From the NCBI GenBank assembly GCA_965203055.1, contig OZ241863.1:2144001-2208000 (forward strand): 64,000 nt of DNA. Direction: 5' to 3'. This document shows, in pieces, positions 5,691 to 60,174 of this stretch (position 1 is the stretch's first letter; every line of letters begins with the position of its first letter). Origin of the DNA: Spirochaetia bacterium. GTDB taxonomy: Bacteria > Spirochaetota > Spirochaetia > SZUA-6 > Bin103. The notes under the pieces were generated by a model. The model was not told where the DNA came from, did not search any database, and saw nothing but the letters and a program-made list of their open reading frames with translations. The position numbers and the translations under genes are program-made.

Positions 5691-5907
5691 CGAGAACCTG
5701 TTCCTCCTGCTGCTCCGCGGCGCGTCCCGCGGCGACTGCCCGGTCGCGCGCCGCCTGGTCGCGCGCCTCGATCTGCGCTTCGGTACGGTCGCCGGCGGCG
5801 CCGTGGTCGAACGTCCGATGCAACACCAGACCCAACGCCATCACCCCGACCGCGGTGATCACCACTATACTCCACACCTTGGCCAGCGAGACACCTACTA
5901 CATGCAT
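5584..5907 (-). CDS. Hypothetical membrane protein (N-terminal TM + charged helix; i-spanin-like layout)
   Basis: WSIVVITAVGVMALGLVL followed by Ala/Glu/Gln/Arg-rich helix; overlaps next gene by 107 bp. Confidence 0.5.
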   Translation of the reverse strand: MHVVGVSLAKVWSIVVITAVGVMALGLVLHRTFDHGAAGDRTEAQIEARDQAARDRAVAAGRAAEQQEEQVLDGETDDQVLAGADPAVRAAVARAIADHEWRHHPAE

Positions 5908-6024
5908 GGCCTACGGTATCACACGTGCCGACCGCTTGACAGCGCCCGCCACCGAAGTATTCAGAAGACGTTAGAGTCCACAAAGACCGAACCGCCCCTC
6001 ACCGAATCGCCCGCGCGGGGCGGC

Positions 6025-6108
6025 GTGGTCGACCGCGGTGCAATCCATCGGCACCTCCTGGACCCAAGTTCCAGAGGCTATGATAAGTTGTTTCTATGTA
6101 GTTGTTTA
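6025..6108 (+). repeat. 84-bp inverted repeat, left copy (partner 18021-18104)
   Basis: gtggtcgaccgcggtgcaatccatcggcacctcctggacccaagttccagaggctatgataagttgtttctatgtagttgttta matches the reverse complement of 18021-18104 at 77/84 by manual alignment. Confidence 0.92.
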
Positions 6109-6136
6109 CGTATTGTGACTGCATTATGTACGGGGG

Positions 6137-6165
6137 TTGACAACCGAACGGAATCACCTTATACC
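6137..6165 (+). promoter_or_regulatory. Putative sigma70 promoter of lipoprotein 1
   Basis: TTGACA-N17-TATACC; conserved in paralogous copy at 15075. Confidence 0.6.
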
Positions 6166-6230
6166 TATCCCTATACCGTCCAGGCGGAATCGTCTCAGGC
6201 TGTCTCCGTTCGCCGGGACAGAGGGGGGAG

Positions 6231-7754
6231 ATGATGAAACATCTGGTGTATCTGGCTCTAGCGGCAGGCGCTCTTGCGATGATGGGATGTGGCGGAGTTG
6301 CACCCCCGAAGCCTGCAGCTCCGCCGGCGGCAGATCCGCCGGCGCCTACAGCGGCCAAGTACTCCTGCGGCGATGGCTACATCTTCGACGGTGATCAAGT
6401 GCTCGGGCCGGAAGGCGCGGTTGTCAATGATGTCTTCTACTGGGGTTCGAACACCTCGGGAGCGGCGCGATGCTTCTCTGACACTCGAAACAACAGTATG
6501 GTTGGCGTTGGCAGCAGGGTAGAATCGAACGCAGGCGATGCCACAGGCGCAACAGTCATGTCAGTTACCCTTCCTGACGAACGCAGGTGGTATTTCATAC
6601 TTGAATTCTCCGATGGCACCTACTGTTCTGCGGCCTCTGCAGGGGATGGGAGAGCGGCCTGCTTTGCAACGGTGGAACGAGATGCTACCGGATTTCGCTT
6701 GGACGATCTCCCTGCTGTTACACTCCCTGTTCCTGCAGGCGCACCGGAGCCTCCTCTTGTTGAAGATCCCCCCGAGCCTCCTGTTGGCAATACTTATTTC
6801 CGGTGGGGAAGGATCGAAGAAGTTACTACCGACCAACGTAGGTGGTATCTCATACTTGGGTACGGTCCTGGTGAGATCGTCGACGGGCGCGACGACGACC
6901 CCGGGCGGGGTGACCCCGCCTGTATTGCGGCTACTGCAGGGGATGGGATAGTGACCTGCACTGCAACAACGTTTCAAGGTAATGGTGACGATAAATATAC
7001 CACAGACGATCTCCCTGCCTCTACCTCGCCTCAATCTTCCGAAGGCACCGATGCCATATATGCGTACATTAGAGTTTTTAGTCGCCAGGGGGGTCTCTGG
7101 TATCTCGTGCTTGAATCCCCTGATGGCACCTTCTGTTCTGCGGCCACTGCAGGGGATGGGATAGTGACCTGCACGAGCCATCCGTATCCTCCGCTGAGTG
7201 GTGATTGGGTCCCCCCCGGTGGTCCTGGTCCTGGTGGTGGCGACGGGGGCGGGGGGCAAACTGGTGCCCCGGAGCCGGAAGATCCTCAGCCTGTTGGCAA
7301 TACTTATTTCCGGTGGGGAAGGATCGAAGAAGTTACTACCGACCAACGTAGGTGGTATCTCATACTTGGGTACGGTCCTGGTGAGATCGTCGACGGGCGC
7401 GACGACGACCCCGGGCGGGGTGACCCCGCCTGTATTGCGGCTACTGCAGGGGATGGGATAGTGACCTGCACTGCAACAACGTTTCAAGGTAATGGTGACG
7501 ATAAATATACCACAGACGATCTCCCTGCCTCTACCTCGCCTCAATCTTCCGAAGGCACCGATGCCATATATGCGTACATTAGAGTTTTTAGTCGCCAGGG
7601 GGGTCTCTGGTATCTCGTGCTTGAATCCCCTGATGGCACCTTCTGTTCTGCGGCCACTGCAGGGGATGGGATAGTGACCTGCACGAGCCATCCGTATCCT
7701 CCGCTGAGTGGTGATTGGGTCCCCCCCGGTGGTCCTGGTCCTGGTGGTGGCTGA
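6231..7754 (+). CDS. Repeat-domain lipoprotein 1 (WYxIL...CxAATAGDGxxTC family), 3'-truncated next to IS3
   Basis: Lipobox LAMMG-C19, Pro/Ala linker, five copies of the Cys-pair motif, RBS-like gaggggggag, visibly lower GC than flanks. Confidence 0.85.
   Translation: MMKHLVYLALAAGALAMMGCGGVAPPKPAAPPAADPPAPTAAKYSCGDGYIFDGDQVLGPEGAVVNDVFYWGSNTSGAARCFSDTRNNSMVGVGSRVESNAGDATGATVMSVTLPDERRWYFILEFSDGTYCSAASAGDGRAACFATVERDATGFRLDDLPAVTLPVPAGAPEPPLVEDPPEPPVGNTYFRWGRIEEVTTDQRRWYLILGYGPGEIVDGRDDDPGRGDPACIAATAGDGIVTCTATTFQGNGDDKYTTDDLPASTSPQSSEGTDAIYAYIRVFSRQGGLWYLVLESPDGTFCSAATAGDGIVTCTSHPYPPLSGDWVPPGGPGPGGGDGGGGQTGAPEPEDPQPVGNTYFRWGRIEEVTTDQRRWYLILGYGPGEIVDGRDDDPGRGDPACIAATAGDGIVTCTATTFQGNGDDKYTTDDLPASTSPQSSEGTDAIYAYIRVFSRQGGLWYLVLESPDGTFCSAATAGDGIVTCTSHPYPPLSGDWVPPGGPGPGGG
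6780..7751 (+). repeat. Intragenic direct duplication, 462 bp, period 510 bp (6780-7241 / 7290-7751)
   Basis: Copies read identical block by block. Confidence 0.95.
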
Positions 7755-7990
7755 GGCTGAGGCGGCTGAGGTGGTCCCGGTTGGTTAGACAGTCCGAGGG
7801 GTAGGTTAAGGTGTATCCGTCGGTTGTCAACCTACCCCTCCCTCTGCAAATCAGGCGGCGGTAAATCGGGGGTGGGGTCCGGGGCGGGGGTAGCTGTCCC
7901 TGTGGATATGTGGACAACTCCCGCTCCGCGGTGCGCAGCCACTCGCTCCGTTCCCGGTGCTTGCAGTTTGCCCCCCCCCCCCCCATCTCG

Positions 7991-8823
7991 CTACGCCACC
8001 TGCCCGGCCGGCGCCGCCACGCCGCAGTACCCCTCCGCCGGCGTCCGCCCGTCCAGCGCCGAGTGGGGGCGTACCTCGTTGTAGAACTCCATCCACTCCG
8101 CGATCACGCGCTGCGCCGCGAAGCCGTCCGCCAACTCGTGCAGGTACACCGCCTCATACTTCAACGACCGCCACAGCCGCTCGATGAACACGTTGTCCAG
8201 GCAGCGCCCACGACCGTCCATCGAGCAGCGTATCCCGGCCGCCTCCAACTGCCCCGTGAACGCCCTGCTGGTGAACTGGCTGCCCTGATCGGTGTTGAAG
8301 ACCTCCGGCTTGCCGTAGCGCTCCTGCGCCTGTGCCAACGCCAGCAGGCAGAACTCGCTGTCCAGCGTATTCGCCAGTTCCCAGGCCAGCACCCGCCGAC
8401 TCGCCCAGTCCATCACCGCCACCAAGTACAGGTACCCGTCCTGCACCGGGATATAGGTGATGTCTGCGCACCACACCTGATTCGGTCGCGTAATGGTAAG
8501 CCCTCTCAACAGATACGGATACACTTGATGGTCCGGGTTCGGCACCGTGGTGCGCGGCTTGCGGTAGATCGCCTCCAACCCCAGCAGCCGCATCAGCCGT
8601 CGCACCCGGTGGCGCCCCGCCGTTACCCCTCCCGCGCCAGATGCCGGGCCAGCTGCCGACTGCCGTAGAACGGGTACTTCAGGTACAACTCGTCGATGCG
8701 GCGCATCAAGCTGAGCGTCGCCGCGCTGGCTCCGCGCGGTCGGTAGTACAGGGCCGAGCGGCATACGCCGAGCAGCCGGCACTGCCGACTCAAGCTGAGA
8801 CTCGAATGCTCGCGGTCAACCAT
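7991..8823 (-). pseudogene. IS3 OrfB DDE transposase with apparent 1-nt frameshift near 8626
   Basis: WCADITY, FNTDQGSQFTS, DNVFIERLWRSLKYE; the N-terminal part (RQCRLLG..YPFYGSR) is in another frame and ends REG*. Confidence 0.85.
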
Positions 8824-8843
8824 CAGCCGTCGTTGCTCCAGGC

Positions 8844-9146
8844 TCAGCGATCGAGCCCGCGCGCTAAAAAATCACGCTCCACGGTCAACTCGCCAATCTT
8901 GGCATGGAGGTCATGGATGAGCGCCTCCTGCTCGGCGGGGCCGCGCTTGGCGGTCGCGGCGAACAGTTCTTCGAGTCCGGTCTGGGCTTGCCGCTTCCAG
9001 ACGCTGACCTGATTTGGATGAACGTGGTGCTTGGCAGCGATCGCCTGGATCGTGCGGTCCCAGCGGAACGCCTCCAGCGCCACCCTGGCTTTGAACTGTG
9101 CTGTGAATCGGCGTCGTTTCGTCGCCATCCCATCGGCCCTCCTCAT
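8844..9146 (-). CDS. IS3 OrfA (HTH)
   Basis: RRRFTAQFKARVALEA..HPNQVSVWK..KIGELTVERDFL; TTTTTTA slippery-like motif at its end. Confidence 0.9.
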   Translation of the reverse strand: MRRADGMATKRRRFTAQFKARVALEAFRWDRTIQAIAAKHHVHPNQVSVWKRQAQTGLEELFAATAKRGPAEQEALIHDLHAKIGELTVERDFLARGLDR

Positions 9147-9195
9147 GGCCTGGAATACACCTTAACCTCCTGTCCAATTTTCCGGGACCACCTCA

Positions 9196-9370
9196 CCTCA
9201 ATCTTCCGAAGGCACCGATGCCATAGCTGCGGTAGTGGGACTTCGCTCTAGCCAGTGGTAATCTCATACTTGAATCCCCTGATGGCACCTTCTGTTCTGC
9301 GGCCACTGCAGGGGATGGGATAGTGACCTGCACGAGCCATCCGTTTCCTGCTCCGTTTCCTGGGCTATGA
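9196..9370 (+). pseudogene. Orphan cassette of the lipoprotein repeat domain (+1 frameshift)
   Basis: PQSSEGTDAI-AAVVGLRSSQ-W, then tggtaatctcatacttg (extra A versus tggtatctcatacttg), then ESPDGTFCSAATAGDGIVTCTSHPFPAPFPGL*. Confidence 0.88.
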
Positions 9371-9637
9371 AGTGAACCGGGGCTCTGCAGGCATGGCCGC
9401 GGCGCGCTTGTAGCCGATGCGACCGGCCAGCAGCCAATGATAGCCGTAGAACTGCGAGCTGGTGGTGCGGGCCGCCCCGTGGGCGCACGCGGCCAGCAGC
9501 CGCCTTCCACCAGAAAATCCTACGATTTCGCGTGCGAACGGGCGTTGACGCGGGCTGGCGCCGGGCCAGCGGCGGCCTTCGGAGCCCTTGCGCCCCCGGC
9601 CGTTGGTGGGTAGATTCTCTGTCAGGAGGGAGGTGAG

Positions 9638-12577
9638 ATGCGTTGGCGTGATGCAGGTGACTCCGGTGGTGGGTCGGCGGCCGGGAGTAGTGGGACCCTG
9701 AACAAGGCGTCGCTGTATGCCCTGTTGAAGACCATTCTACAGTCGTCCGAGAGGGTGCACGTCGAGGCGGACGATCCGCATTTCAGGCTGACGCTGTCGC
9801 TGACTGACGATGCTCGGGTGGTCCTTGAGGGTGCTGTCCAGGTGGACGGTATCGATCTCTCCGGGCGTGATCTGGGGTTCTCCAGTGACGGGGGGAGCAG
9901 TGTCAGCTTCACGATGCCCGGCATCACGACGGCGGATGAGGGAAGCGACCTCGGGCGGGTAAATACCGTCGAGAAGCTCAACTTCACAGGCGCGGGCGTG
10001 ACGGCGACGCGCGTGCCCGGTTCGCCTGAGACTACCGTCAACATTCCCGGCGCCAACCCTGGGTCGGGCGGTGTGTCGTTGGCGCAGGTGGACGGGCGGA
10101 TCGATGGGAATCCGCGGGTGACGAGTCTGTCGCGCTTCGAGGCGGCGCTCCGCAAGACCACCGTCATCAGCGGACCCGCTGCCTTCACGGTGGCGTCGCC
10201 GAACGCCGCGGTGGCGATCAGCGGGTCGGTGCCGGGCGCGGAAGCGGACCGCGAGCTGGTGGTGGCGGTGACCGGCTCCCCCACCCAGACGTTCCAGCTC
10301 TCCTCGTTCGCCGGCAAGGATGCGGCCGCCGCCGCCATCACGCTCACGGACGCCAACTCGGTAAAGTGGATGGCGGGCACGGTGACGTATCGCCTTGGCC
10401 ACACCGCCGCCGGGGGGTTCGTTGCGTCCGCCAGTACCGCCGCCACCTACACCATCACCTTGACGGACAGCCGGATCGACCTTGAGACGTGGGCGCGGCG
10501 AAACGGCGAGCAGATTCCCGCCAACCGCCTGCCGAACGGCGGCGGGCTGGGGCAGGCTGCGGTGGACGCGCGGATCGACGCGAATCCGCGGGTGACGAGT
10601 CTGTCGCGCTTCGAGGCGGCGCTCCGCAAGACGACCGTCATCAGCGGACCCGCTGCCTTCACGGTGGCGTCGCCGAACGCCGCGGTGGCGATCAGCGGGT
10701 CGGTGCCGGGCGCGGAAGCGGACCGCGAGCTGGTGGTGGCGGTGACCGGCTCCCCCACCCAGACGTTTCAGCTCTCCTCGTTCGCCGGCAAGGATGCGGC
10801 CGCCGCCGCCATCACGCTCACGGACGCCAACTCGGTAAAGTGGATGGCGGGCACGGTGACGTATCGCCTTGGCCACACCGCCGCCGGGGGGTTCGTTGCG
10901 TCCGCCAGTACCGCCGGCACCTACACCATCACCTTGACGGACAGCCGGATCGACCTGGAGGGTTGGGCGCGGTTGAACGGCGGTCAGATCCCCGCCAACC
11001 GCCTGCCGAACGGCGGCGGTCTGACCCAGGGGCAGGTGGACGCGCGCATCGAGCCGTTCGCGCGCGCCGGCACCACCACCAGGGTGCCGGAATCGCACCT
11101 CCCGACCGACCTCGACCACCTTCTGGACGCGCTGGCCGACGGCGGGTGGTCCACGGAGGGGAACAACGCCGCCGAGGATGCCTGGATCGCCCAGGTTGCC
11201 AGCGCCGTGGGCCCGACCATCGGGGCGGCGCGCGGCTACACCTACGCCAGCGCCACCTGGGAGCGGACCGGCCCCACGATTACGCCGGCGTGGCTGACCG
11301 TGCGGGTGCCGGCGGGGCTGAAGGATGAGGTGGCCGCCGGGAACCTGCGTCTGATCGCCGACTACAACAACGACCCGGACGACATGGGCGATATCGCGGT
11401 GTCGAGTGGCTGGATCCACGTGGGGGACAGCACGGACGGCACCTACCGGTACTACATCCAGCGCTTCACGGGGGTGCCGGCGGGAACCAACATCGTGCAG
11501 CGCTACACCCGGTTCCGCATCGACCGCACCAAGCTCGACACCGGGGTGCCGGTGGGGACGGCGGCGGATGCAGGCGCCGTCCTGACCAAGCGCGCTGATG
11601 GGCCGGTCTGGGAGCAACTGCGGCGCCTGCACGGTCTGCAGGTGCTGCATCACGGGAGCATCGCCCGATTGGCCCTTTCCGCCTTGAATGCGATTGGGAC
11701 CCAGAACCTGACCGGCTTCGCCCCGGCGTTCGATCTCGATGATCACCCTGCCGGTGAGATCCATGCGGAGGTGGTGGCGCGCATCGTCACGCGGAGTGCG
11801 TCCAACATCGGGTGGGGCTCTGGTGGCGCGGACATTGATGGCCGGATCGTGGGGTTGGAGTTCGCCAGCGCCGTGGCGGCCGCTGATGCGTTTGTGTCGG
11901 GGGGCACGGTAGAGGGGGTCGAGGTTGGCCACCTCCTCCTTTACAAGGGTGCGGCGAAGCAGGGCGTGCTGCGGTTCTATCTGGGGCGTGACGGCTCGAA
12001 TCGTGCCGGGTATCTGCTCGACTACCGGCCGGAGAGCGGTGCTTCGAGTACCGACAACGTCACCATCGACGCGCAGCTCGACGTGTCGTTCATGCCGGCG
12101 GACGGTGGTGGTGGCAGTACTAGCGGCGTAGGCGCCAAGATTGCGACCTACGCGTTTCCAGTTGCCGCAGCGAGTTACCAGGCCAGGGTCATGATCCACG
12201 GCACATGGACCATCGAAAGCGCTGGCGCCTCGCGATACGAGCGAAGCGGTAACAACGATGCCCTGCGCATCCCGCGGGTTCTGCCGGATACGCAAGTGGG
12301 CTTTCGCGGTGTAGTGAAGGTTGGTTCTGCTACGGTATCGACATTCTTCGTGCCGTGGACGCTGCTGGTTGCGCCATCAACCACTAGCACTCACTTTGAT
12401 CATGTCAATCAGGACTACTACATGACCATTCCTTACGATGCTCGGGATAGTTATACCGTCCTGCTTATCGTGCAACGGCAGGGCTTGAATACCTATAAGG
12501 ACGCTATCTTCTTCCGCGGCTGCGGCGACAATATTCCGGCTGGTGTGACCGTCGAGTTGTACGAGTGGATGGCGTGA
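9638..12577 (+). CDS. Large repeat-containing protein, phage tail-fibre/adhesin-like
   Basis: Strong RBS aggagggaggtgag; DEGSDLG..KLNFTGAGVTAT and repeated QVDARI/QVDGRI linkers recall fibre proteins; Gly/Ala/Thr-rich; no obvious signal peptide. Confidence 0.65.
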   Translation: MRWRDAGDSGGGSAAGSSGTLNKASLYALLKTILQSSERVHVEADDPHFRLTLSLTDDARVVLEGAVQVDGIDLSGRDLGFSSDGGSSVSFTMPGITTADEGSDLGRVNTVEKLNFTGAGVTATRVPGSPETTVNIPGANPGSGGVSLAQVDGRIDGNPRVTSLSRFEAALRKTTVISGPAAFTVASPNAAVAISGSVPGAEADRELVVAVTGSPTQTFQLSSFAGKDAAAAAITLTDANSVKWMAGTVTYRLGHTAAGGFVASASTAATYTITLTDSRIDLETWARRNGEQIPANRLPNGGGLGQAAVDARIDANPRVTSLSRFEAALRKTTVISGPAAFTVASPNAAVAISGSVPGAEADRELVVAVTGSPTQTFQLSSFAGKDAAAAAITLTDANSVKWMAGTVTYRLGHTAAGGFVASASTAGTYTITLTDSRIDLEGWARLNGGQIPANRLPNGGGLTQGQVDARIEPFARAGTTTRVPESHLPTDLDHLLDALADGGWSTEGNNAAEDAWIAQVASAVGPTIGAARGYTYASATWERTGPTITPAWLTVRVPAGLKDEVAAGNLRLIADYNNDPDDMGDIAVSSGWIHVGDSTDGTYRYYIQRFTGVPAGTNIVQRYTRFRIDRTKLDTGVPVGTAADAGAVLTKRADGPVWEQLRRLHGLQVLHHGSIARLALSALNAIGTQNLTGFAPAFDLDDHPAGEIHAEVVARIVTRSASNIGWGSGGADIDGRIVGLEFASAVAAADAFVSGGTVEGVEVGHLLLYKGAAKQGVLRFYLGRDGSNRAGYLLDYRPESGASSTDNVTIDAQLDVSFMPADGGGGSTSGVGAKIATYAFPVAAASYQARVMIHGTWTIESAGASRYERSGNNDALRIPRVLPDTQVGFRGVVKVGSATVSTFFVPWTLLVAPSTTSTHFDHVNQDYYMTIPYDARDSYTVLLIVQRQGLNTYKDAIFFRGCGDNIPAGVTVELYEWMA
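10088..11019 (+). repeat. Intragenic tandem duplication, period 474 bp (158 aa)
   Basis: aatccgcgggtgacgagtctg at 10109 and 10583; near-identical with scattered substitutions. Confidence 0.93.
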
Positions 12578-13653
12578 TGGACTCGCCGTCATTCCCGACC
12601 GGTCGTTCCGCGCCTGACGCGCGCGCCGTGCGGCCGCTGGCGAACGCGCCGCCGGCCTCCCCGGCCCGGACCGTGCGCAACGCCGCCCCGGCCCGGACCG
12701 TGCGCAACGCCGCTCCGCGGACCGTGCCGGCGCTCGACAGCGACATCGAATCCCTGGTCACCGAGGATGATACGCCGGTGGACAACCTGCCCTCCGAGAA
12801 GCAGCAACGCCTGCTCACCGAGCCGTTGTACAGTTCCTGGGCCGGCCCCGGCGGCGGGCGCCCGTTTCTGGCCGCCGCCAACGTGGGCGTGTTCCCTGAA
12901 GCGCGCAATCCGGCGATCGTGCCGGACGTGTTGCTGAGTCTGGACGTGCAGGTGCACGAGAACTGGTGGGACAAGGAGCACCGCTCCTACTTCGTGTGGG
13001 AGTTCGGCAAGGCGCCGGACCTGGTGGTGGAAATCGTGTCCAACCGGAAGGGCGAGGAGATTGGGAAGAAGCGGATGAGGTACGCCCGGATGGGGGTTGG
13101 CTACTACGTGGTCTCCGATCCGTTGCGGCAGGTGATGGGAGATGAGCTGCGCGTCTTTCGGTTGAGCGGCGGGGGATACGAACGCCAGGAGTGGCCCTGG
13201 TTCCCGGAGCTGGGGCTGGGGATGACGCTGTGGGAGGGGGAGTTCGAGGGCGTGCGCAGCCGGTGGCTGCGCTGGACGGACGCGCAGGGCGAGTTGATCC
13301 CCACCGGCAAGCAGCGTGCAGAGCAGCAACAGCAGCGCGCAGAGCAGGAGGCGGCCGCTCGCCAGGCCGCAGAGACCCGTGTCCAACAGGAGGCGGCCGC
13401 GCGCCGCCAGGAAGCGGACGCACGCCAAGCCGCAGAAATCCGCGTCCAACAGGAGGCGGCCGCCCGCCGCCAGGAAGCGGACGCACGCCAAGCCGCAGAA
13501 ATCCGCGTCCAACAGGAGGCGGCCGCCCGCCGCCAGGAAGCGGACGCACGCCAAGCCGCAGAAATCCGCGTCCAACAGGAGGCGGCCGCGCGCCAAGCGG
13601 CCGAAGCGCGGGTGGCCGAACTCGAGGCATTGCTAGGCCGCAGATCCACCTGA
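12577..13653 (+). CDS. Uma2 (DUF820) family PD-(D/E)XK endonuclease with coiled-coil tail
   Basis: EDDTPVDN..SEKQQRLL, IVPDV, GKAPDLVVEIVS; ATG overlaps upstream stop (TGATG). Confidence 0.9.
   Translation: MDSPSFPTGRSAPDARAVRPLANAPPASPARTVRNAAPARTVRNAAPRTVPALDSDIESLVTEDDTPVDNLPSEKQQRLLTEPLYSSWAGPGGGRPFLAAANVGVFPEARNPAIVPDVLLSLDVQVHENWWDKEHRSYFVWEFGKAPDLVVEIVSNRKGEEIGKKRMRYARMGVGYYVVSDPLRQVMGDELRVFRLSGGGYERQEWPWFPELGLGMTLWEGEFEGVRSRWLRWTDAQGELIPTGKQRAEQQQQRAEQEAAARQAAETRVQQEAAARRQEADARQAAEIRVQQEAAARRQEADARQAAEIRVQQEAAARRQEADARQAAEIRVQQEAAARQAAEARVAELEALLGRRST
13345..13610 (+). repeat. 63-bp tandem repeat (QQEAAARRQEADARQAAEIRV)
   Basis: gtccaacaggaggcggccgc at 13381, 13444, 13507, 13570. 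Confidence 0.95.
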
Positions 13654-13887
13654 CGCTATCTGCGTCGGAAGTGGCCCGGCGGCCCTCGGCTCGGCTGGCT
13701 TGGATAGCTTGGCTCTCGCTGGATTCCCAGAATAGATCGCTGGCCCGGACGGCCCTGCAATGTCCAGCGCTGCCGGAACGTCCCGATCGCCGGCGCTCCG
13801 CGGGTGCCAAGTGCGGCAGTTGACCCGCTACCGGCGATGTTTGGTCGGCGAGCGCAGCCGGGCGCGCAAGACCCTCGACCACGTCGC

Positions 13888-14823
13888 TCACACGTTATAG
13901 CGCTCGAACCGGCCGGCGATGTTCCGGCGGGTAGCTTCCTCCTGCGAAATGAGCTGGCTGGCGGAGAGGCCCGTCAGGTTCTCCATCTGCTCCAATCGCC
14001 GGGCGAACAACGGCAGCCCCAGTTGCTCCGCTCCCCCAGCCTGCGACGTAGTGCTGCCGATGAGAATGTTGTTGGCTGCTTCCAGCTTCGACCGCCCATG
14101 CATGACGTCCCGCACGTACTTGCCGGCCCAGCCCGGGCCGGCATTCCACGCCAGCCCCATGAGCCCGCCTGCCTGCCGGACCGTCCCCACCAGACCCTTG
14201 GTGATGGCATCCGCCACCGGAGCCCAGTGCGACCGCCACAATGCGCCCGTGCGCATGATCTGGTTATTCGACATCCCTTCGTCGACGCGCAGACGTTCCG
14301 CCTCATCGGCGCGGCGTGCGGCAGCTCCCCAATCCGCCCCGAAGTTCTCGCCGGCAAGCGTCGCCCAGGTGTCGCCGGCGTCCCTGTAGACGCCGTTCCG
14401 CACCATCTCGCCATTGATTTCCTCGCCGTCGTTGCGCTTGTCGATCCACCGTTCCTTGCCGATCAGCGACTCGATGATCTGATCGTATTGCTGATCCGTG
14501 CCCTGCCATCGATCCCGGTTCGTGCGCCGGTCATCATTCACCGGTTCGACGGCCCGCGAACCTCCGGTGATCCGGATCACCTGACCGGGATGGATCAGAT
14601 CCGGGTTCTCGATGTTGTTCCGCTGGGCCAGCGCTTGCACCGTCGTGCCGTACCGGCGCGCGATGGCGCCCAGGGTCTCCCCCGGGCGCACCGTATGGGT
14701 CTGCGTCTCCGGAGACCGCGCCTGCCGGCGCCCCGGATGCCCCGGCGCGGCGCCAAACGGAGTATCTGATGCCATCCTGCGATCCTCCCATTGACCAGTG
14801 GCGGCGTCGAAGTATACCCCCAA
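13888..14823 (-). CDS. LysM-domain protein with unknown C-terminal region (alternative start 14775)
   Basis: HTVRPGETLGAIARRYGTTVQALAQRNNIENPDLIHPGQVIRI; GGAGG upstream of ATG 14775. Confidence 0.85.
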   Translation of the reverse strand: MGVYFDAATGQWEDRRMASDTPFGAAPGHPGRRQARSPETQTHTVRPGETLGAIARRYGTTVQALAQRNNIENPDLIHPGQVIRITGGSRAVEPVNDDRRTNRDRWQGTDQQYDQIIESLIGKERWIDKRNDGEEINGEMVRNGVYRDAGDTWATLAGENFGADWGAAARRADEAERLRVDEGMSNNQIMRTGALWRSHWAPVADAITKGLVGTVRQAGGLMGLAWNAGPGWAGKYVRDVMHGRSKLEAANNILIGSTTSQAGGAEQLGLPLFARRLEQMENLTGLSASQLISQEEATRRNIAGRFERYNV

Positions 14824-14865
14824 TATCCGCCCTCGTCACCTCCTCGATGGCGGGCGGGCGACGGC

Positions 14866-15013
14866 GCGCGCATTTCCAAAATGCAGGTAAGGGTCGGGCC
14901 GCTTGGCGGCCAAGCCCAGTCCCCGGCTGCGCCGGCGCCTGAGCCGATACCTTCGCCGCCGAAGGAGCGGCGCTGTCCGCGCTGGCCACCGCAGCGCCGC
15001 GCGCCGAGGCCGC
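14866..15013 (-). mobile_element. Internally deleted remnant of the HNH cassette at 25524-27320
   Basis: 14868-14923 matches 25526-25582; ~14923-15013 matches ~26050-26155. Confidence 0.88.
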
Positions 15014-15074
15014 TAAGGATAACTTGTTTCCATGTCGTTGTTTATCATATTATGGACTGCATTGTGTACGGGGG

Positions 15075-15103
15075 TTGACAGCCGAACGGAATCACCTTAA
15101 CTT
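15075..15103 (+). promoter_or_regulatory. Putative sigma70 promoter of lipoprotein 2
   Basis: TTGACA-N17-TAACTT; the region 15018-15166 is homologous to 6082-6230. Confidence 0.65.
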
Positions 15104-15166
15104 ACCAACATATGCCGTCCAGGCGGCATCGCCTCAGTGCTGTCTCCGCTTGCGGGACCGGGGGGA

Positions 15167-16498
15167 ATGATGAAGCATCTGGTGTATCTGGCTCTAGCGG
15201 CAGGCGCTATTGCGGTGACAGGATGTGACGACGTTGCAGCTCCGAAGCCTGCAGCTCCGCTGGCGGCCGCACCGGCGCCTACACCGGCGGCCGAGTACTC
15301 CTGCGGCGATGGCTACATCTTCGACAGTGATCAAGTGCCCGGGCCGGAAGGCGCGGTCGTCAACGATGTCTTCTACTGGGGTTCGAGCACCTCGGGAGCG
15401 GCGCGATGCTTCTCTGACACTCGAAACAACAGCATAGTCGGCAGGGTAGAATCGAACGCGGGCGATGCCATAGCCGCAACAACCATGTCAGTTACCCTTT
15501 CCGGCGAACGCAGGTGGTATCTCATACTTGAATTCTCCGATGGCACCTACTGTTCTGCGGCCACTGCAGGGGATGGGAGAGCGACCTGCTTTGCAACGGT
15601 GGAACGAGATGCTACTGGATTTCGCGTAGACGATCTCCCTGCTGTTCCACTTCCTGTTCCTGAAGGCGCACCGGAGCGTCCTGTTGTAGATCCTCCCGGT
15701 GGTCCCGGTCCTGGTGGTGGCGACGTGGGCGGGGGGCATACCGGTGCCCCGGAGCCTGCCCCGAAGCCGGAAAAGAGGAAATTCAAGAATGCAAGGGTCG
15801 CCTATATTGCGGACCCGGATCAGAGCCGAGGCGGCGTTGACCGCCTGAGATTCGTTACCCGGGAGGGATTGGACGATTACGACGATCTTCCTGACGAACG
15901 TAGGTTGTATTTAATACTTAAGTTGAACGTTCCACGTGACGGTTACATCACCTCTCATAATTGTATTGTGGCTACTACAGGGAATGGGAGAGTGACCTGC
16001 GTTGCACCGTTGAAATTCTGGTGGGACCATTCTCACTGCAGCGACGGCGAATGCAATGGAGACGGTGATGGTCATATTCGGTTTACATATAACGCCACAG
16101 GACGGACCGCGCCGCATCCATCAGTAGACCATTTCCCTACCTCTACCTCGCCTCAATCTTCCGACGGCGACAATGCCATAGGCGTGACAGCCTATCTCCT
16201 CTATAGTGATGTGCAAAGCAACCCTCGCCACTATGGCAGGGAGACTTTTTACGTACCTCCAGGCTGGCCTAGTTCTCCTAGCACAGATAGGTGGTATTTC
16301 ATACTTGCATTCTCCGACCTCCACCCGCATCGCCCGTTTGATCTCGATCTCGATCCAAACGGGGTCAATGATCATACCTTCTGTATTGCGGCAACTAAAG
16401 GTGATGGAATAGTGACCTGCCATGAAATGGTGAAAGGAGTTTCTACTAAATATGCGAATGGTTACATTGACCAATGGGAAGTACCATACGTGCCGTAG
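15167..16498 (+). CDS. Repeat-domain lipoprotein 2, paralog of 6231-7754
   Basis: MMKHLVYLALAAGAIAVTG-C lipobox; N-terminal ~175 aa closely similar to lipoprotein 1; three Cys-pair motifs, two with different loops. Confidence 0.87.
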   Translation: MMKHLVYLALAAGAIAVTGCDDVAAPKPAAPLAAAPAPTPAAEYSCGDGYIFDSDQVPGPEGAVVNDVFYWGSSTSGAARCFSDTRNNSIVGRVESNAGDAIAATTMSVTLSGERRWYLILEFSDGTYCSAATAGDGRATCFATVERDATGFRVDDLPAVPLPVPEGAPERPVVDPPGGPGPGGGDVGGGHTGAPEPAPKPEKRKFKNARVAYIADPDQSRGGVDRLRFVTREGLDDYDDLPDERRLYLILKLNVPRDGYITSHNCIVATTGNGRVTCVAPLKFWWDHSHCSDGECNGDGDGHIRFTYNATGRTAPHPSVDHFPTSTSPQSSDGDNAIGVTAYLLYSDVQSNPRHYGRETFYVPPGWPSSPSTDRWYFILAFSDLHPHRPFDLDLDPNGVNDHTFCIAATKGDGIVTCHEMVKGVSTKYANGYIDQWEVPYVP

Positions 16499-16508
16499 CG
16501 GTGAGCGG

Positions 16509-16552
16509 TGAGGTGGTCACCGGTTGGTTAGACAGTCCGAGGGGTAGGTTAA
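16509..16552. mobile_element. Solo IS3 end
   Basis: tgaggtggtcaccggttggttagacagtccgaggggtaggttaa equals 7767-7809 plus one inserted A. Confidence 0.9.
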
Positions 16553-16791: not shown

Positions 16792-17796
16792 ATGCGTTGG
16801 CGTGATGCAGGTGACTCCGGTGGCGGGTCGGTGGCCGGGAGTAGTGGGAGTTTTGAGGAAGCGCTACGGCGCGTAACTGTCATTGTGGACGGAGATACCG
16901 TCAACATTTTGAATCGTCCTGCTCCCTATCGGATAAGCAGCGATGCTATAGTTCCTGAGAGAGAGGCTGACAGGAGGCTACGGTTGGCGGCGAGCACGTC
17001 GGCTATTGATTCTGCGGAACTGGACGGCGAGTCTACCACGATCAAGCTGTCCGATCTTCTCGCCAAGCAGGTGATTCCGACTCGCTCGCATGTGATGAAC
17101 TCGTCCAACTCGGTGACGTTCCGGGGCGTTGAGGGTAGGACGATGTACATTGGGACGATGTACATTGGCAGGTCAGAAGATCGCCAGTTCCTGATCGGTT
17201 CCGACTCCCCCAGTACCTATCGCGTCTACATCCGTGACGACCGGATTGACATTCGCCCGGAGCGCCTCGAAAGGACGGTTGATGACCGCATCAAGCCGTT
17301 CGCGCGCGCCGGCGCCACCCCCACCAAGATTGCGACCTACAGTTTTCCACCTGCCGATTTAGAGCCGTACCCGGCGGGTACTCCTATCAACGGCAGTTGG
17401 CTCATCGCAAGCACCGCTACCCCCGATCGATACGAGCCAAGCGATGACAACATTGCCCTGCGCATCCCGCGGAATCTGCCGGCTACGCTATCGGGCTTTT
17501 ACGGTGAAGTGAAGGTTGGTTCTACTAAGGTATCGACATTCATCGTGCCGTGGACGCTGGTGGTTGCGCCCACTAGCACTAGCGCTCTCACACTTAACGC
17601 TCATAATGTCGAGCAGGGCTATTACATGACCATTCCTGACAATAATCAGAATGGTTATAGCGTCATGCTTGTCGTGCAACGGCAGGCCGTAAATAACTAT
17701 AAGGACGCTATCTACTTCCGGGGCTGCGGCAACAATATTCCGGCTATTCCGGCTGGTGTGCCCGTGACCGTCGATTTGTACGAGTTGTTGTCGTGA
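16792..17796 (+). CDS. Short paralog of the fibre-like protein
   Basis: Same leader/RBS and start MRWRDAGDSGGGS; one diverged repeat unit (FEEALRRVTVI), DDRIKPFARAG, homologous C-terminal domain (KIATY..STFIVPWTL..KDAIYFRGCG). Confidence 0.8.
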   Translation: MRWRDAGDSGGGSVAGSSGSFEEALRRVTVIVDGDTVNILNRPAPYRISSDAIVPEREADRRLRLAASTSAIDSAELDGESTTIKLSDLLAKQVIPTRSHVMNSSNSVTFRGVEGRTMYIGTMYIGRSEDRQFLIGSDSPSTYRVYIRDDRIDIRPERLERTVDDRIKPFARAGATPTKIATYSFPPADLEPYPAGTPINGSWLIASTATPDRYEPSDDNIALRIPRNLPATLSGFYGEVKVGSTKVSTFIVPWTLVVAPTSTSALTLNAHNVEQGYYMTIPDNNQNGYSVMLVVQRQAVNNYKDAIYFRGCGNNIPAIPAGVPVTVDLYELLS

Positions 17797-18020: not shown

Positions 18021-18104
18021 TAAACAACGACATAGAAATAAGTTATCATAGCCTCTGGAACTTGGGTCCGGGAGGTACCGATGGATTGCACCGCTCTCGA
18101 CCAC
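18021..18104 (-). repeat. 84-bp inverted repeat, right copy
   Basis: Reverse complement matches 6025-6108 at 77/84. Confidence 0.92.
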
Positions 18105-18107
18105 TTC

Positions 18108-18194
18108 ACCTATAAGGACGCTATCTTCTTCCGCGGCTGCGGCTACAATATTCCGGCTGGTGTGACCGTCGAGTTGTACGAGTGGATGGCGTGA
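18108..18194 (+). pseudogene. Orphan 3' end of the fibre-like gene
   Basis: 86/87 identical to 12491-12577, including the stop codon. Confidence 0.92.
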
Positions 18195-18335
18195 CGGCCA
18201 ATGGCCCTCGCGTACCGCGCTGCGGTCGTGGTTCGAGGTGGCGACCGGCAAATCGTACACCCGGTCGGTTACCACGGTCCAGCGCAGAATAACTCGCTGG
18301 CCCGGACGGCCCCGCAATGTCCAGCGCGCGGGCGT

Positions 18336-58294: not shown

Positions 58295-60174
58295 TGGCGG
58301 ACAGCGGCCGACCGGCGCGCGGCGGCACCCTCGACCGCTCCGAGCTGGACCGGGTAACGGTGCGCTTCGCCGGCGACTCCGGGGACGGCCTGCAAGTGGT
58401 CGGGGCGCAGTTGACCAACGTCTCGGCGGCGTTCGGCAACGATCTGTCGACCCTGCCCGACTACCCGGCGGAAATCCGCGCTCCGGCGGGGACCTTGCCG
58501 GGGGTGAGCGCGTTTCAGATCAGCTTCGCCAGCGAGGACATTCACACCCCCGGCGACGCCCCGGACGTGCTGGTGGCGCTCAATCCGGCGGCGCTCAAGG
58601 CCAACCTGCCGGACATTCCCAGCGGCGGCACCCTGATCATCAACGAGGACGCCTTCACTGCCCAGGGTCTCAACAAGGCGGGCTACGACGGCAACCCGCT
58701 CGACGACGCCTCCCTGAGCAGCTACCGCGTGATCAGGCTGCCGATCACCTCGCAGAACGAGAAGGCGCTCGACCACCTCGGTCTGAGCCCGCGCCAGGCC
58801 GGGCGTTCCAAGAACTTCTACGCGCTCGGCATCATCTATTGGCTCTACGATCGTCCCGCGGAGCCCACCCTGCGCTGGTTCGAGCAGAAGTGGGGTTCGC
58901 GCCCGCAGGTGGTCGCCGCCAACAGCGCGGCGCTGAAGGCCGGCTACTCGTTCGCCGATACCACCGAACTGTTCACCTCCGCGTACCGCGTGCCGCCGGC
59001 CGCGCTCCCGCCCGGCACCTACCGCAACATCACCGGCAATCAGGCCACGGCGCTCGGCTTCATAACCGCGGCCCATCTCGCCGGCCGGCCATTGTTCTAC
59101 GCCAGCTACCCGATCACCCCGGCCAGCACGGTGCTGCATGAGCTGGCGCACCACCGCAACCTGGGCATCGTCACCTTCCAGGCGGAGGACGAAATCGCGG
59201 CGATCGGCGCGGCCATCGGGGCCGCGTTCGGCGGGTCGCTGGCGTTGACCGGTACCAGCGGTCCGGGGCTGGCGTTGAAGAGCGAGGCGCTGGGGCTGGC
59301 GGTGGTGGTGGAGCTGCCGCTGGTGGTGATCGACGTGCAGCGCGCCGGCCCCTCCACCGGCATGCCCACCAAGACCGAGCAGGCGGATCTGCTGCAGGCC
59401 ATGTTCGGCCGCAACGGCGAGGCGCCGGTGGCCGTCGTCGCCCCGGCCACGCCCGGCGACTGCTTCGCCATGGCACTGGAGGCATTCCGCATCGCGGTCA
59501 CCCACATGACCCCGGTGCTGTATCTCTCCGACGGCTACCTGGCGAACGGCTCCGAGCCGTGGCGCATCCCGGCGCTGGATGACCTGCCGTCGATACCGGT
59601 GCGGTTCCACACCGACCCGGCGGGGTTCCAGCCCTACGCGCGCGACCCGCGCACCCTGGCCCGCCCGTGGGCGATTCCCGGCAGCGCGGGACTGGAGCAC
59701 CGGGTCGGGGGGCTGGCGAAGGAGGACGTCACCGGCGACGTCAGCTACGACCCGGAGAACAACGAACGCATGGTGCGGCTGCGGGCGCGCAAGATCGCCG
59801 GCATCGCGGCCGGCATTCCGCCGGTGGAGGTGCGCGGCCCGGACCGCGGCCGGCTGCTGGTGCTCGGCTGGGGCAGCACCAGCGGCGCCATCACCACCGC
59901 CTGCGAAAAGCTGCGCGAGCAGGGCGTGGCGGTGTCCAACGCCCACCTGCGACACCTGAATCCGTTTCCGTCCAACCTGGGCGCGGTGCTGCAACGGTTC
60001 GAGCAGGTGCTGATCCCGGAGTTGAACCTGGGCCAGCTTCGCATGCTCATCGCCGACGCCTATGGCGTCAATGCCCGGCGCCTCTCCAAGCTGCAGGGCA
60101 AGCCGTTCCTGGTGCGCGAGGTGCAGGCCGCCATCGTCGAGGAACTGGCGAGGATCGACCATCATGCCAACTGA
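58291..60174 (+). CDS. korA: 2-oxoacid:acceptor oxidoreductase alpha subunit
   Basis: AGDSGDG, YPAEIRAP, YPITP, QAEDE, QRAGPSTG. Confidence 0.92.
   Translation: MMADSGRPARGGTLDRSELDRVTVRFAGDSGDGLQVVGAQLTNVSAAFGNDLSTLPDYPAEIRAPAGTLPGVSAFQISFASEDIHTPGDAPDVLVALNPAALKANLPDIPSGGTLIINEDAFTAQGLNKAGYDGNPLDDASLSSYRVIRLPITSQNEKALDHLGLSPRQAGRSKNFYALGIIYWLYDRPAEPTLRWFEQKWGSRPQVVAANSAALKAGYSFADTTELFTSAYRVPPAALPPGTYRNITGNQATALGFITAAHLAGRPLFYASYPITPASTVLHELAHHRNLGIVTFQAEDEIAAIGAAIGAAFGGSLALTGTSGPGLALKSEALGLAVVVELPLVVIDVQRAGPSTGMPTKTEQADLLQAMFGRNGEAPVAVVAPATPGDCFAMALEAFRIAVTHMTPVLYLSDGYLANGSEPWRIPALDDLPSIPVRFHTDPAGFQPYARDPRTLARPWAIPGSAGLEHRVGGLAKEDVTGDVSYDPENNERMVRLRARKIAGIAAGIPPVEVRGPDRGRLLVLGWGSTSGAITTACEKLREQGVAVSNAHLRHLNPFPSNLGAVLQRFEQVLIPELNLGQLRMLIADAYGVNARRLSKLQGKPFLVREVQAAIVEELARIDHHAN

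Follow-up and report, generated by a model that had tools for sequence, protein, structure and literature searches.

Two paralogous lipoprotein genes built from repeated cysteine-containing units in a Spirochaetia bacterium

In a 64-kb stretch of DNA from a Spirochaetia bacterium (the window; contig OZ241863.1, positions 2,144,001 to 2,208,000 of the forward strand), two genes, A and A', carry short DNA boxes that recur on either side of dissimilar segments. A question arises, do these boxes belong to a system that switches a surface antigen, as VlsE and TprK are switched, or do they record the ordinary evolution of a repeat protein? We lean, if only slightly, towards A and A' being two expressed-type paralogues of an undescribed modular lipoprotein family whose evolution proceeds through duplication, conversion and indels, and through the swapping of modules. 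We see no sign of a programmed antigen-switching system.

Genes, boxes and units of the locus

The features on which the argument rests are listed by window coordinates, strand and content.

6025..6108, +, repeat segment upstream of gene A, paired with 18021-18104 in an 84-nt inverted repeat (92% complementary)
6117..6161, +, conserved 45-nt upstream segment with TTGACA, common to A' (15055-15099, 96%) and partly to the related locus L001
6231..7754, +, gene A, 507-aa lipoprotein; the evidence includes family member P0007
6582..6662, +, unit 1 core of A: box A, 7-aa loop EFSDGTY, box B
6780..7241, +, perfect 462-bp tandem duplication, equal to 7290-7751 (period 510)
6837..6959, +, unit 2 core of A: box A, 21-aa loop, box B; exact copy at 7347-7469
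7095..7172, +, unit 3 core of A: variant box A, loop ESPDGTF, box B; exact copy at 7605-7682
7212..7276, +, Pro/Gly linker DNA (PPGGPGPGGGDGGGGQTGAPEP), 92% identical to 15692-15756
7767..9195, -, IS3-family insertion sequence (HTH_Tnp_1, rve), terminal inverted repeats starting TGAGGTGGTCCCGG
7991-8782, -, orfB of the IS3-family element
8844-9146, -, orfA of the IS3-family element
9196..9372, +, "orphan cassette", a 3' gene remnant directly adjoining the IS end
9638..12577, +, gene B, 979 aa, downstream neighbour of A, no family, internal 474-bp repeat
15164..16498, +, gene A', 444-aa lipoprotein, reading frame open from GTG 15137
15509..15589, +, unit 1 core of A', with box A and box B matches
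15899..16000, +, unit 2' core of A', loop KLNVPRDGYITSHN
16286..16420, +, unit 3' core of A', 25-aa loop
16509..16552, +, solo left inverted repeat remnant of the IS3-family element, 11 nt past the A' stop, also in L001
16792..17796, +, gene B', 334 aa, sharing its first residues and last ~150 aa (56% identity) with B
18021..18197, +, rearrangement scar: inverted A-upstream copy (18021-18104) and B-type gene end (18108-18197)

Gene A encodes a signal with its Cys, a 4-Cys N-domain that includes unit 1, and two identical two-unit modules; it terminates within a truncated copy of the Pro/Gly linker (7722-7751), immediately ahead of the IS. In A', the N-domain with unit 1 and the Pro/Gly linker are followed by units 2' and 3', which box C connects. 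As a degenerate 39-mer, with at most 3 mismatches allowed, box B gives nine matches in the 64 kb (6624, 6921, 7134, 7431, 7644, 9293, 15551, 15962 and 16382), where 0 are expected and 100 shuffles gave 0; no copy lies elsewhere in the window than in 6231-16498. The nine units that an earlier note on this DNA had counted are thus all present, yet two of them, units 4 and 5 of gene A, cannot be counted as independent, because 6780-7241 equals 7290-7751 at 462/462 bases and they are exact copies made by the tandem duplication. Box A lies where that note had placed it, six times within 3 mismatches (6585, 6840, 7350, 15512, 15902, 16289; 0 expected) and at 7098, 7608 and ~9256 as a more divergent variant (CTCTGGTATCTCGTGCTTG) that belongs to an 89-nt repeat family, D3. 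Box C recurs, also as described, exactly at 7019, 7529 and 16141 and partially at 9196, and the five loop peptides quoted, with their range of 7-25 aa, had been read correctly.

Eight of the nine box-B copies sit in the two complete genes, and the remaining one is in a frameshifted fragment adjoining the IS. This fragment is the 3' end of a gene that the IS3-family element has severed; the right junction of the element is ambiguous by a few bases. A 1-base insertion places a stop inside box A, such that the remnant reads PQSSEGTDAIAAVVGLRSSQW-stop and continues in the +1 frame as LILESPDGTFCSAATAGDGIVTCTSHPFPAPFPGL-stop; its homologue in family members P0004, P0014 and P0018 is their natural C-terminal unit. 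In a related genome, in which all seven box-B copies of locus L001 (21 kb) lie inside its two genes, only 16 nt of the remnant are retained. It had been taken for an orphan cassette, a reading that an IS-severed, frameshifted gene end does not bear out.

Part of the repeat segment upstream of A (6025-6108) is found again upstream of A' (15018-15046). A strict sigma-70 scan called no promoter upstream of A or A', the TTGACA segment included. B and B' are absent beside both orthologues of A and A' in L001, and scar segment 18108-18197 represents the final 28 codons of a gene of B type (98% to 12491-12580). No small conserved reading frame was found after the stop codons of A and A'.

An uncharacterised family with an invariant cysteine framework

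Searches with A and A' gave no match in Pfam, NCBIfam, PHROGs, PDB sequences or Foldseek, in agreement with the earlier description of the family as uncharacterised. The family is small, with 17 matches among 5.8 billion clusters; a set of 1.84 billion representatives gave 25 at E<=1e-3, of which 24 are credible clusters and the other a Sushi-repeat false positive. Its members share a lipoprotein-type N-terminus with a nearly invariant Cys, a conserved 4-Cys N-domain and Pro/Gly linkers. C47, C82, C130 and C142 are invariant in 18/18 sequences and in 33/33 aligned family members, and the box-B Cys pair falls on adjacent predicted strands; the constant Cys framework that had been proposed is therefore upheld. 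In P0001-P0017 one N-domain with its linker precedes four unrelated C-terminal classes, the unit repeats in eight proteins and the others in five, three and one. Distant members carry an F5/8 type C domain (P0026) or an fn3-like domain (P0029). The number of modules varies from one in P0014 to two in P0004 and two-plus in P0007 and P0008. P0018 displays an apparent deletion with its breakpoint inside box B, which may be an assembly collapse because this protein is known from a single 2,082-bp metagenome contig.

AlphaFold2 secondary structure is all beta, with box A at E76-85 and the box-B strands at E90-95 and E101-107 (pLDDT 64-84 there), suggesting that the boxes are the core strands of a predicted beta unit. 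Since the models are poor over the full length (pLDDT 40.5) and mediocre for the N-domain (58.0, pTM 0.58), strands and disulfides are to be taken as putative. A and A' would be surface-type or periplasm-facing lipoproteins.

DNA-level likeness of the units and variation of the loops

Where two boxes encode the same residue they use the same codon in 109 of 127 pairs, compared with 46.2 +/- 6.0 expected from the genes' own codon usage; 109 was reached in none of 5000 simulations. The boxes are thus over-conserved at synonymous sites, well past what selection on the protein would call for, a point that the earlier note had asked to have checked, and it follows that the units have either a recent common DNA ancestry or a history of gene conversion. 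The codon over-conservation fits recombination or conversion involving the boxes; alternatively, selection could act on the DNA itself, for example on recombination anchors, along the lines of the earlier note. Over the module region of A and A', 139/165 nt are identical in box columns and 109/255 in aligned non-box columns, a further 136 being gapped, and at unchanged residues the same codon is used in 35/39 box versus 13/23 non-box columns. The two module copies of A are identical at 462/462 positions in the window and at 342/344 in L001, but only 96-97.6% identical between the genomes, and the substitutions I>K, Q>E, R>S and A>V are present in both copies, indicating concerted evolution. 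The repeats are genuine, and recombination maintains their likeness.

Are the loops between the boxes hypervariable? Comparison of the window with the related genome that carries L001 (dS 0.025) reveals that all three A' loops are identical, with 0/46 codons changed; about 2.5 changes would be expected if they were spread evenly, so that this result is not significant alone and displays no excess. The N-domain loop occurs in three variants of constant length among 18 proteins. The large differences that had suggested hypervariable, CDR-like loops are those between paralogous unit types within one protein, and the description does not hold. The 25-aa loop of unit 3', set beside the equivalent unit in P0003, is a short loop bearing an 18-aa insertion. 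In the sole variable loop tip, that of unit 2 of A, the difference consists of point changes and a 6-nt indel within a GACGACGAC/CCCGGGCGGGG stretch, and in close genomes 7/31 of its visible columns are changed versus 13/242 elsewhere. Over the N-domain, A and A' give a dN/dS of 0.65; the value for A' and its L001 orthologue is 0.63. Given the high dN/dS and the changes in one loop tip, some diversifying pressure on exposed parts is plausible.

Competing explanations and known systems

According to PMC11499132, vls combines one expression site with contiguous arrays of silent cassettes ~90% identical to its central region, and its recombination is segmental and unidirectional. The locus resembles Borrelia vls in that a lipoprotein of a Spirochaetia host has variable segments flanked by segments alike in DNA; it differs in having two complete genes and one decayed, IS-severed fragment instead of an array, and in A' loops that two genomes have in common without change. 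Programmed antigenic or phase variation, in which the boxes would anchor segmental gene conversion from silent cassettes into expressed genes as in vlsE and tprK, is in our estimate very unlikely. It would account for conserved boxes with over-conserved synonymous sites around unalignable segments, the feature shared with vls and tprK (139/165 box versus 109/255 non-box identities), for a promoterless partial unit, and for a unit 2 loop tip of A that differs among all five alleles or copies seen, in a Spirochaetia host. Yet the partial unit is the only fragment in 64 kb, IS-adjoining, frameshifted and reduced to 16 nt in the relative; box B resides in complete genes (8/9 copies in the window, 7/7 in L001), each of A and A' has its own start and the common upstream segment, the A' loops are unchanged (0/46 codons, not significant alone), and the variable tip can be traced to a short repeat with a 6-nt indel and not to an imported segment. 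Variable regions did not differ between isolates for A' in the window versus L001, many promoterless donor cassettes were found in neither the 64-kb window nor L001, and A, A' and seven relatives of this branch matched no Pfam family at cutoff, VlsE/Vmp-like and Tpr families included. The analogy with VlsE and TprK that had been drawn thus fails at its defining feature, because no cassette array occurs in the DNA examined and both genes are complete. Other switching devices were likewise not found here: the island showed no homopolymer switch or site-specific invertase, its sole recombinase is the IS3 transposase, and at the ribosome-binding region there is only a G6/G5 run; no invertase lies near the 84-nt inverted repeat around the island. 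Among the island reading frames scanned there is no reverse transcriptase of a diversity-generating retroelement, and repeat copies show either 100% identity or differences at every type of base, not at adenines alone.

Could the boxes be alike only through the requirements of the fold, in an ordinary ancient repeat protein free of recombination? They fall on the Cys pair and the strands predicted to form the core, and the loops on insertion-tolerant places, but codon identity (109/127 versus 46 expected; 35/39 box versus 13/23 non-box columns between A and A'), the perfect 462-bp duplication and the parallel substitutions in the module copies disfavour this, and we regard it as improbable. 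Mycoplasma Vlp, Vsa and Vsp proteins have a conserved lipoprotein N-terminus followed by tandem repeats, the copy number of which depends on the strain. A and A' share with them the conserved lipoprotein N-terminus and copy-number-variable tandem repeats, and differ in that their modules are 70-170 aa long, Cys-containing and predicted to fold as beta structures, whereas those repeats are short and of low complexity. Mycoplasma variable surface lipoproteins are the subject of PMC10535464 and PMC3720590. In myxobacterial SitA, as PMC5562445 and PMC8546572 describe it, a lipoprotein with a conserved N-terminal part carries modular, exchangeable C-terminal parts. The likeness to A and A' extends to the lipoprotein signal, the conserved N-terminal part and the polymorphic C-terminal part; neither a toxin domain nor a conserved downstream immunity-type gene was found here. 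A polymorphic lipoprotein toxin of this type, with a delivery N-terminus, exchangeable C-terminal toxins and downstream immunity genes or orphan C-terminal pieces, might explain one N-domain and linker before four unrelated C-terminal classes, the lipoprotein signal, the orphan C-terminal fragment downstream of A and the IS-rich, highly plastic locus. We hold it to be highly improbable: no toxin family occurs in A, A' or P0002, P0003, P0005, P0006, P0009, P0013 and P0017 (the only match in these seven relatives is a weak, sub-threshold He_PIG in P0017), the window modules are copies of the N-domain's own structural unit, no small conserved reading frame follows the stop codons, and B and B' are large, belong to no family and are absent beside both L001 orthologues.

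It is unlikely, too, that the boxes, the Pro/Gly linker and box C are kept as DNA recombination anchors that exchange loops and modules among paralogues, decayed copies and alleles, as a cassette-shuffling form of surface variation. This reading is compatible with the box codons, the mosaic pattern of A versus A', the P0018 junction in box B and the variable loop tip, and its setting would be an environmental, high-GC Spirochaetia bacterium and a new disulfide-pinned beta scaffold.

Returning to the modular family that we favour, the repeat modules of this branch may be extra copies of the second half of the N-domain (~135 aa). The unit would be a beta meander in which box A (RRWYLIL) forms one strand, box B (C-x4-AGDG-x3-C) a tight hairpin with two Cys facing each other in a putative disulfide, and box C (DDLP-STSPQSS) the unit end and linker, the "loop" being an insertion-tolerant connection from the box-A strand to the box-B hairpin. 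Recent unit duplication, homogenisation by intragenic gene conversion and unequal crossing-over, or both, would have made the boxes near-identical, and the same conversion and crossing-over process the perfect 462-bp duplication. Diversity would arise over evolutionary time through gain and loss of module copies and small loop indels, and further where entire C-terminal modules are exchanged at the conserved linker and where IS elements mediate rearrangement, of which the "orphan cassette" is probably debris. The conserved N-domain may serve as a membrane-proximal handle, with variable modules that bind ligands or surfaces.

The locus also carries a caution, that conserved-anchor repeats and one stray fragment do not amount to an antigenic-variation system; a long-standing question would be opened only if population data reveal active shuffling. 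For annotation the family is of use, since none of the relatives searched has a name. If the reading is right, the 4-Cys N-domain and the repeated Cys-hairpin unit define a new domain family in few uncultured lineages, and A and A' provide a clean natural case of a bacterial surface-type lipoprotein that undergoes concerted evolution and swaps modules.

The island and its two gene sets

The window is chromosomal, with about 72% G+C. Ordinary housekeeping genes flank, on both sides, an island at about 5.7-18.3 kb of the window, where G+C is lowered to 57-66%. This island contains two similar two-gene sets, in each of which a lipoprotein gene (A or its paralogue A') precedes a second gene (B or B'), with a Uma2-family gene and a LysM gene between the sets. 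Orthologues of A and A' are carried by L001, a 21-kb locus of a related genome.

Features of the island, its flanks and locus L001
Flanks, both sides of the island: GlnE, LigD primase-polymerase, SDR, lactate-racemase-like gene, PolX
6231-7754: gene A, first of set 1
7767-9195, minus strand: IS3-family element with HTH_Tnp_1 and rve ORFs; terminal inverted repeats start TGAGGTGGTCCCGG
9638-12577: gene B, after A, set 1
15164-16498: gene A', first of set 2
16792-17796: gene B', after A', set 2
L001, 840-10000 and 11400-14200: ISL3 and IS3 transposases, AIPR, nucleotidyltransferase and AAA_14/DUF4143 genes

Over about 560 bp at the 5' end of their coding sequences, A and A' are 89-90% identical (repeats D6 and D7), and they share a 45-nt upstream segment with TTGACA (D16); a sigma-70 promoter scan found none for either gene. 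Third-codon G+C is 0.51-0.52 in A and A', where the genes around them have about 0.9. The two genes use codons almost evenly, and ATA, AGG, CTT, GCA and ACT, codons rare in host genes, are fixed in their repeated boxes. This composition suggests a foreign origin of A and A', from a donor of lower G+C.

Further observations concern the surroundings. A run of G directly precedes the start codons of A (6222-6228) and A' (15157-15163), G6 in the window and G5 in L001 (about 9994-9999); it is probably just a ribosome-binding site and, being too short, is no argument for slippage switching. An 84-nt inverted repeat, 92% complementary (6025-6108 and 18021-18104), brackets the whole 12-kb island, its right arm repeating the A-upstream segment in inverted and truncated form, joined to a B fragment. 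No invertase lies near this repeat; homologous recombination may invert the island. The Uma2-family gene (12565-13653) encodes a putative endonuclease whose C-terminal part consists of four 63-bp tandem repeats (QQEAAARRQEADARQAAEIRV; 13282-13594). Rfam finds as RNA elements of the window only two tRNAs, both far from the island. ARAGORN also calls a 90-nt tRNA-Tyr (anticodon ATA) within an ORF at 60006-60095, probably falsely, as Rfam does not confirm it at gathering score.

B and B' form a second unannotated family, with first residues in common (MRWRDAGDSGGGS), a 147-nt upstream/5' block of 86% identity and about 150 C-terminal residues of 56% identity. B has an internal repeat of 474 bp (95% identity), and its last 28 codons recur on their own at 18108-18197 (98% identity). 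Only five relatives of this family are found among 5.8 billion clusters; Pfam and PHROGs gave no match, nor did tblastn of B against 50,697 phage records. The approximately 9 kb between the A genes of L001 are wholly unlike the window in content, and an AIPR and nucleotidyltransferase pair occurs twice in that locus (5755-7232 and 12161-14154).

A lipoprotein family and its modelled unit

A search of 5.8 billion clusters with A' returned just 17 proteins, and a profile of these yields 25 matches among 1.84 billion representatives (E<=1e-3). One, P0034, is a Sushi-repeat false positive; ten belong to a close branch and fourteen are distant, sharing only the conserved N-terminal domain (N-domain, which includes unit 1). 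Pfam, NCBIfam, PHROGs and PADLOC hold no fitting family for A-type proteins and, judging from these libraries and from relatives listed without source names, the family appears to be undescribed. The nearest DNA record is OZ241907.1, 'MAG: Spirochaetia bacterium'. In every member the signal peptide ends in Cys, and four Cys are invariant (18/18 proteins, and 33/33 in a larger alignment). In most, a Pro/Gly linker of G-G-G-D type follows the N-domain. What comes after the linker falls, among the 17 close proteins, into four unrelated classes (unit repeats in 8, three others in 5, 3 and 1), while distant members have an F5/8 type C or fn3-like domain there.

Several origins and systems were considered and rejected. 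A plasmid origin found no match in tblastn of A' against 72,556 plasmids. A prophage or tail-fibre origin of the neighbours was discarded, PHROGs giving nothing for A', B or B' and for A a weak unnamed family only (E 2.5e-5). PADLOC reports nothing relevant to defence, and a diversity-generating retroelement was dismissed, with neither a reverse transcriptase nor an adenine-biased repeat pair.

AF2 modelled the full-length protein poorly (pLDDT 40.5). The N-domain model, built on a 33-sequence alignment, reaches pLDDT 58.0 and pTM 0.58, with 64-84 across the unit, and is all beta: box A forms strand 76-85 and the halves of box B strands 90-95 and 101-107. In the model the two Cys of box B lie opposite each other with an AGDG turn between them, from which we infer a cross-strand disulfide; the loop would be the connection from the box-A strand to the box-B hairpin. 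Foldseek of the N-domain model against PDB returned no match at E<=0.001 (best TM about 0.2), and a PDB sequence profile yielded low-complexity and signal-peptide noise only (best E 0.01). The ESM Atlas held no usable match for the A' N-domain, and for B' only scores of 0.78 or lower.

Boxes, loops and recombination

The earlier note described nine units built on repeated DNA boxes. The boxes are real: box B (degenerate 39-mer, <=3 mismatches) occurs at nine sites in the window, all on the plus strand within 6624-16420, and in 0/100 shuffled sequences. Box A has six sites at <=3 mismatches, plus a diverged variant at 7098, 7608 and about 9256 (repeat family D3); box C, the unit end and linker, has three exact sites and a partial copy at 9196. 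The loop peptides had also been read correctly. The count of nine holds for box-B sites, but units 4 and 5 of gene A are copies of units 2 and 3, since 6780-7241 and 7290-7751 match at 462/462 bases, and the ninth unit is a broken fragment.

That fragment (9196-9372), taken for an orphan cassette, abuts the IS3-family element. Gene A ends within the Pro/Gly linker, 15 nt ahead of the left IS end; to the right of the element the sequence restarts directly in mid-box C and reads PQSSEGTDAIAAVVGLRSSQW-stop, and after a 1-base insertion the next frame reads LILESPDGTFCSAATAGDGIVTCTSHPFPAPFPGL-stop. P0004, P0014 and P0018, products of intact genes, naturally end in the fragment's unit (...WYLILEFSDGTFCSTATAGDGIVTCTSHPFPPPYP). 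As the IS flanks are contiguous in no unit, a deletion accompanied the insertion. The orthologue of A in the related genome is truncated at the same codon without the IS, and that genome retains only 16 nt of the fragment (ATAGTGACCTGCACGA). Abutting the IS, frameshifted, and dispensable in the relative, the supposed cassette is debris.

In both genomes the A' stop is followed, 11 nt on, by a solo remnant of the same IS end, 44 nt long; the 3' end of both A genes thus carries the IS or its remnant. The IS end resembles linker DNA (GGTGGTCC-GGT), its inverted repeat (GAGGTGGTCCCGGT) being similar to Pro/Gly-linker DNA (CGGTGGTCCTGGT; sites 7722-7766, 7767-7792 and 16498-16552). The element may prefer targets similar to its own ends, which would explain repeated insertion at the ends of A genes. 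The IS also contains a run of 14 C (7971-7984), which lies just past the stop of orfB, a gene encoded on the opposite strand.

Are the loops hypervariable, as claimed? Between the window and L001, A' differs over 443 codons by 8 synonymous and 16 nonsynonymous changes with 7 gapped columns (dS 0.025, ratio 0.63); 0/46 loop codons changed where about 2.5 were expected by chance, which is no excess of loop change and alone is not significant. In the 18 proteins that have it, the N-domain loop keeps its length and takes three forms (EFSDGTY, QFPDGTY, HFSDGTY). Across 287 columns, gene A and its L001 orthologue differ by 12 nonsynonymous and 6 synonymous changes, and 8 columns are gapped; changed columns number 7 of the 31 visible at the unit-2 loop tip, 0/14 in the unit-3 loops and 13/242 in the remainder. 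This tip (GRDD-x-GDP) exists in five versions in the five proteins with this unit type. At the DNA level the genomes differ there by a 6-nt indel in GACGACGAC/CCCGGGCGGGG and one or two point changes, ordinary slippage-type change with no imported segment. In unit 3', the 25-aa length of the loop comes from an 18-aa insertion into the short loop that P0003 has in this unit. Overall, the loops are sites of indel accumulation, with one tip a local hot spot, and the large differences listed earlier are those between paralogous unit types; general hypervariability is not borne out.

The boxes behave differently from the rest of the units. In a test on five distinct unit types and 19 box codons, with the expectation drawn from the genes' own non-box usage, the same codon was used in 109/127 same-residue pairs versus 46.2 +/- 6.0 expected (maximum 70; 0/5000 draws reached 109), a figure that is not a probability because the units are related. 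Box synonymous sites are thus over-conserved, as the earlier note proposed to check, and far from saturated. Between the modules of A and A', identity is 40/55 aa and 139/165 nt in box columns and 24/85 aa and 109/255 nt in non-box aligned columns, with 136 more non-box columns gapped; at unchanged residues the codon is identical in 35/39 cases in boxes versus 13/23 outside. The N-domains of A and A' have dS 0.136 and dN 0.088 (ratio 0.65). The distance between boxes of different unit types is about that between the paralogues A and A', and the rest of the units is unalignable, a pattern that point substitution alone cannot explain. Either short conversion tracts homogenise the boxes, or segments between them were replaced.

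Direct signs point to ongoing intragenic recombination: the 462-bp duplication, the likeness of the module copies in L001 (342/344 identical to each other, against 96-97.6% between genomes), the same four substitutions in both module copies, and a module number that varies among relatives. In P0018, unit 1 passes into a unit-2 tail exactly at box B, although its source is a single 2,082-bp contig and assembly collapse is therefore possible.

How the family probably diversifies

The over-conserved box codons speak against a purely ancient repeat in which recombination played no part, a reading that we consider improbable. Programmed variation by gene conversion, suggested by analogy with VlsE and TprK, is very unlikely: no cassette array was found in the DNA compared, the 64-kb window and the 21-kb locus L001, the window holds no loop donors elsewhere, and tblastn of A and A' returned only both genes and the fragment. 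Equally hard to credit is a SitA-like polymorphic toxin. The architecture is in common, but no toxin domain turned up in A, A' or the seven close relatives scanned, and the downstream gene is not conserved: neither B nor B' occurs beside the L001 orthologues.

We lean, with some reserve, towards a modular surface-type lipoprotein family with a repeated beta unit that is pinned by Cys and whose core the boxes would form. Diversification would proceed on evolutionary time scales through duplication and deletion, conversion, loop indels, module exchange at linker sites and IS activity. Given the lipoprotein signal, the exported-type Cys pattern, the carbohydrate-binding and fn3 domains of distant members and the raised dN/dS, A and A' may serve in binding or adhesion at the cell surface.
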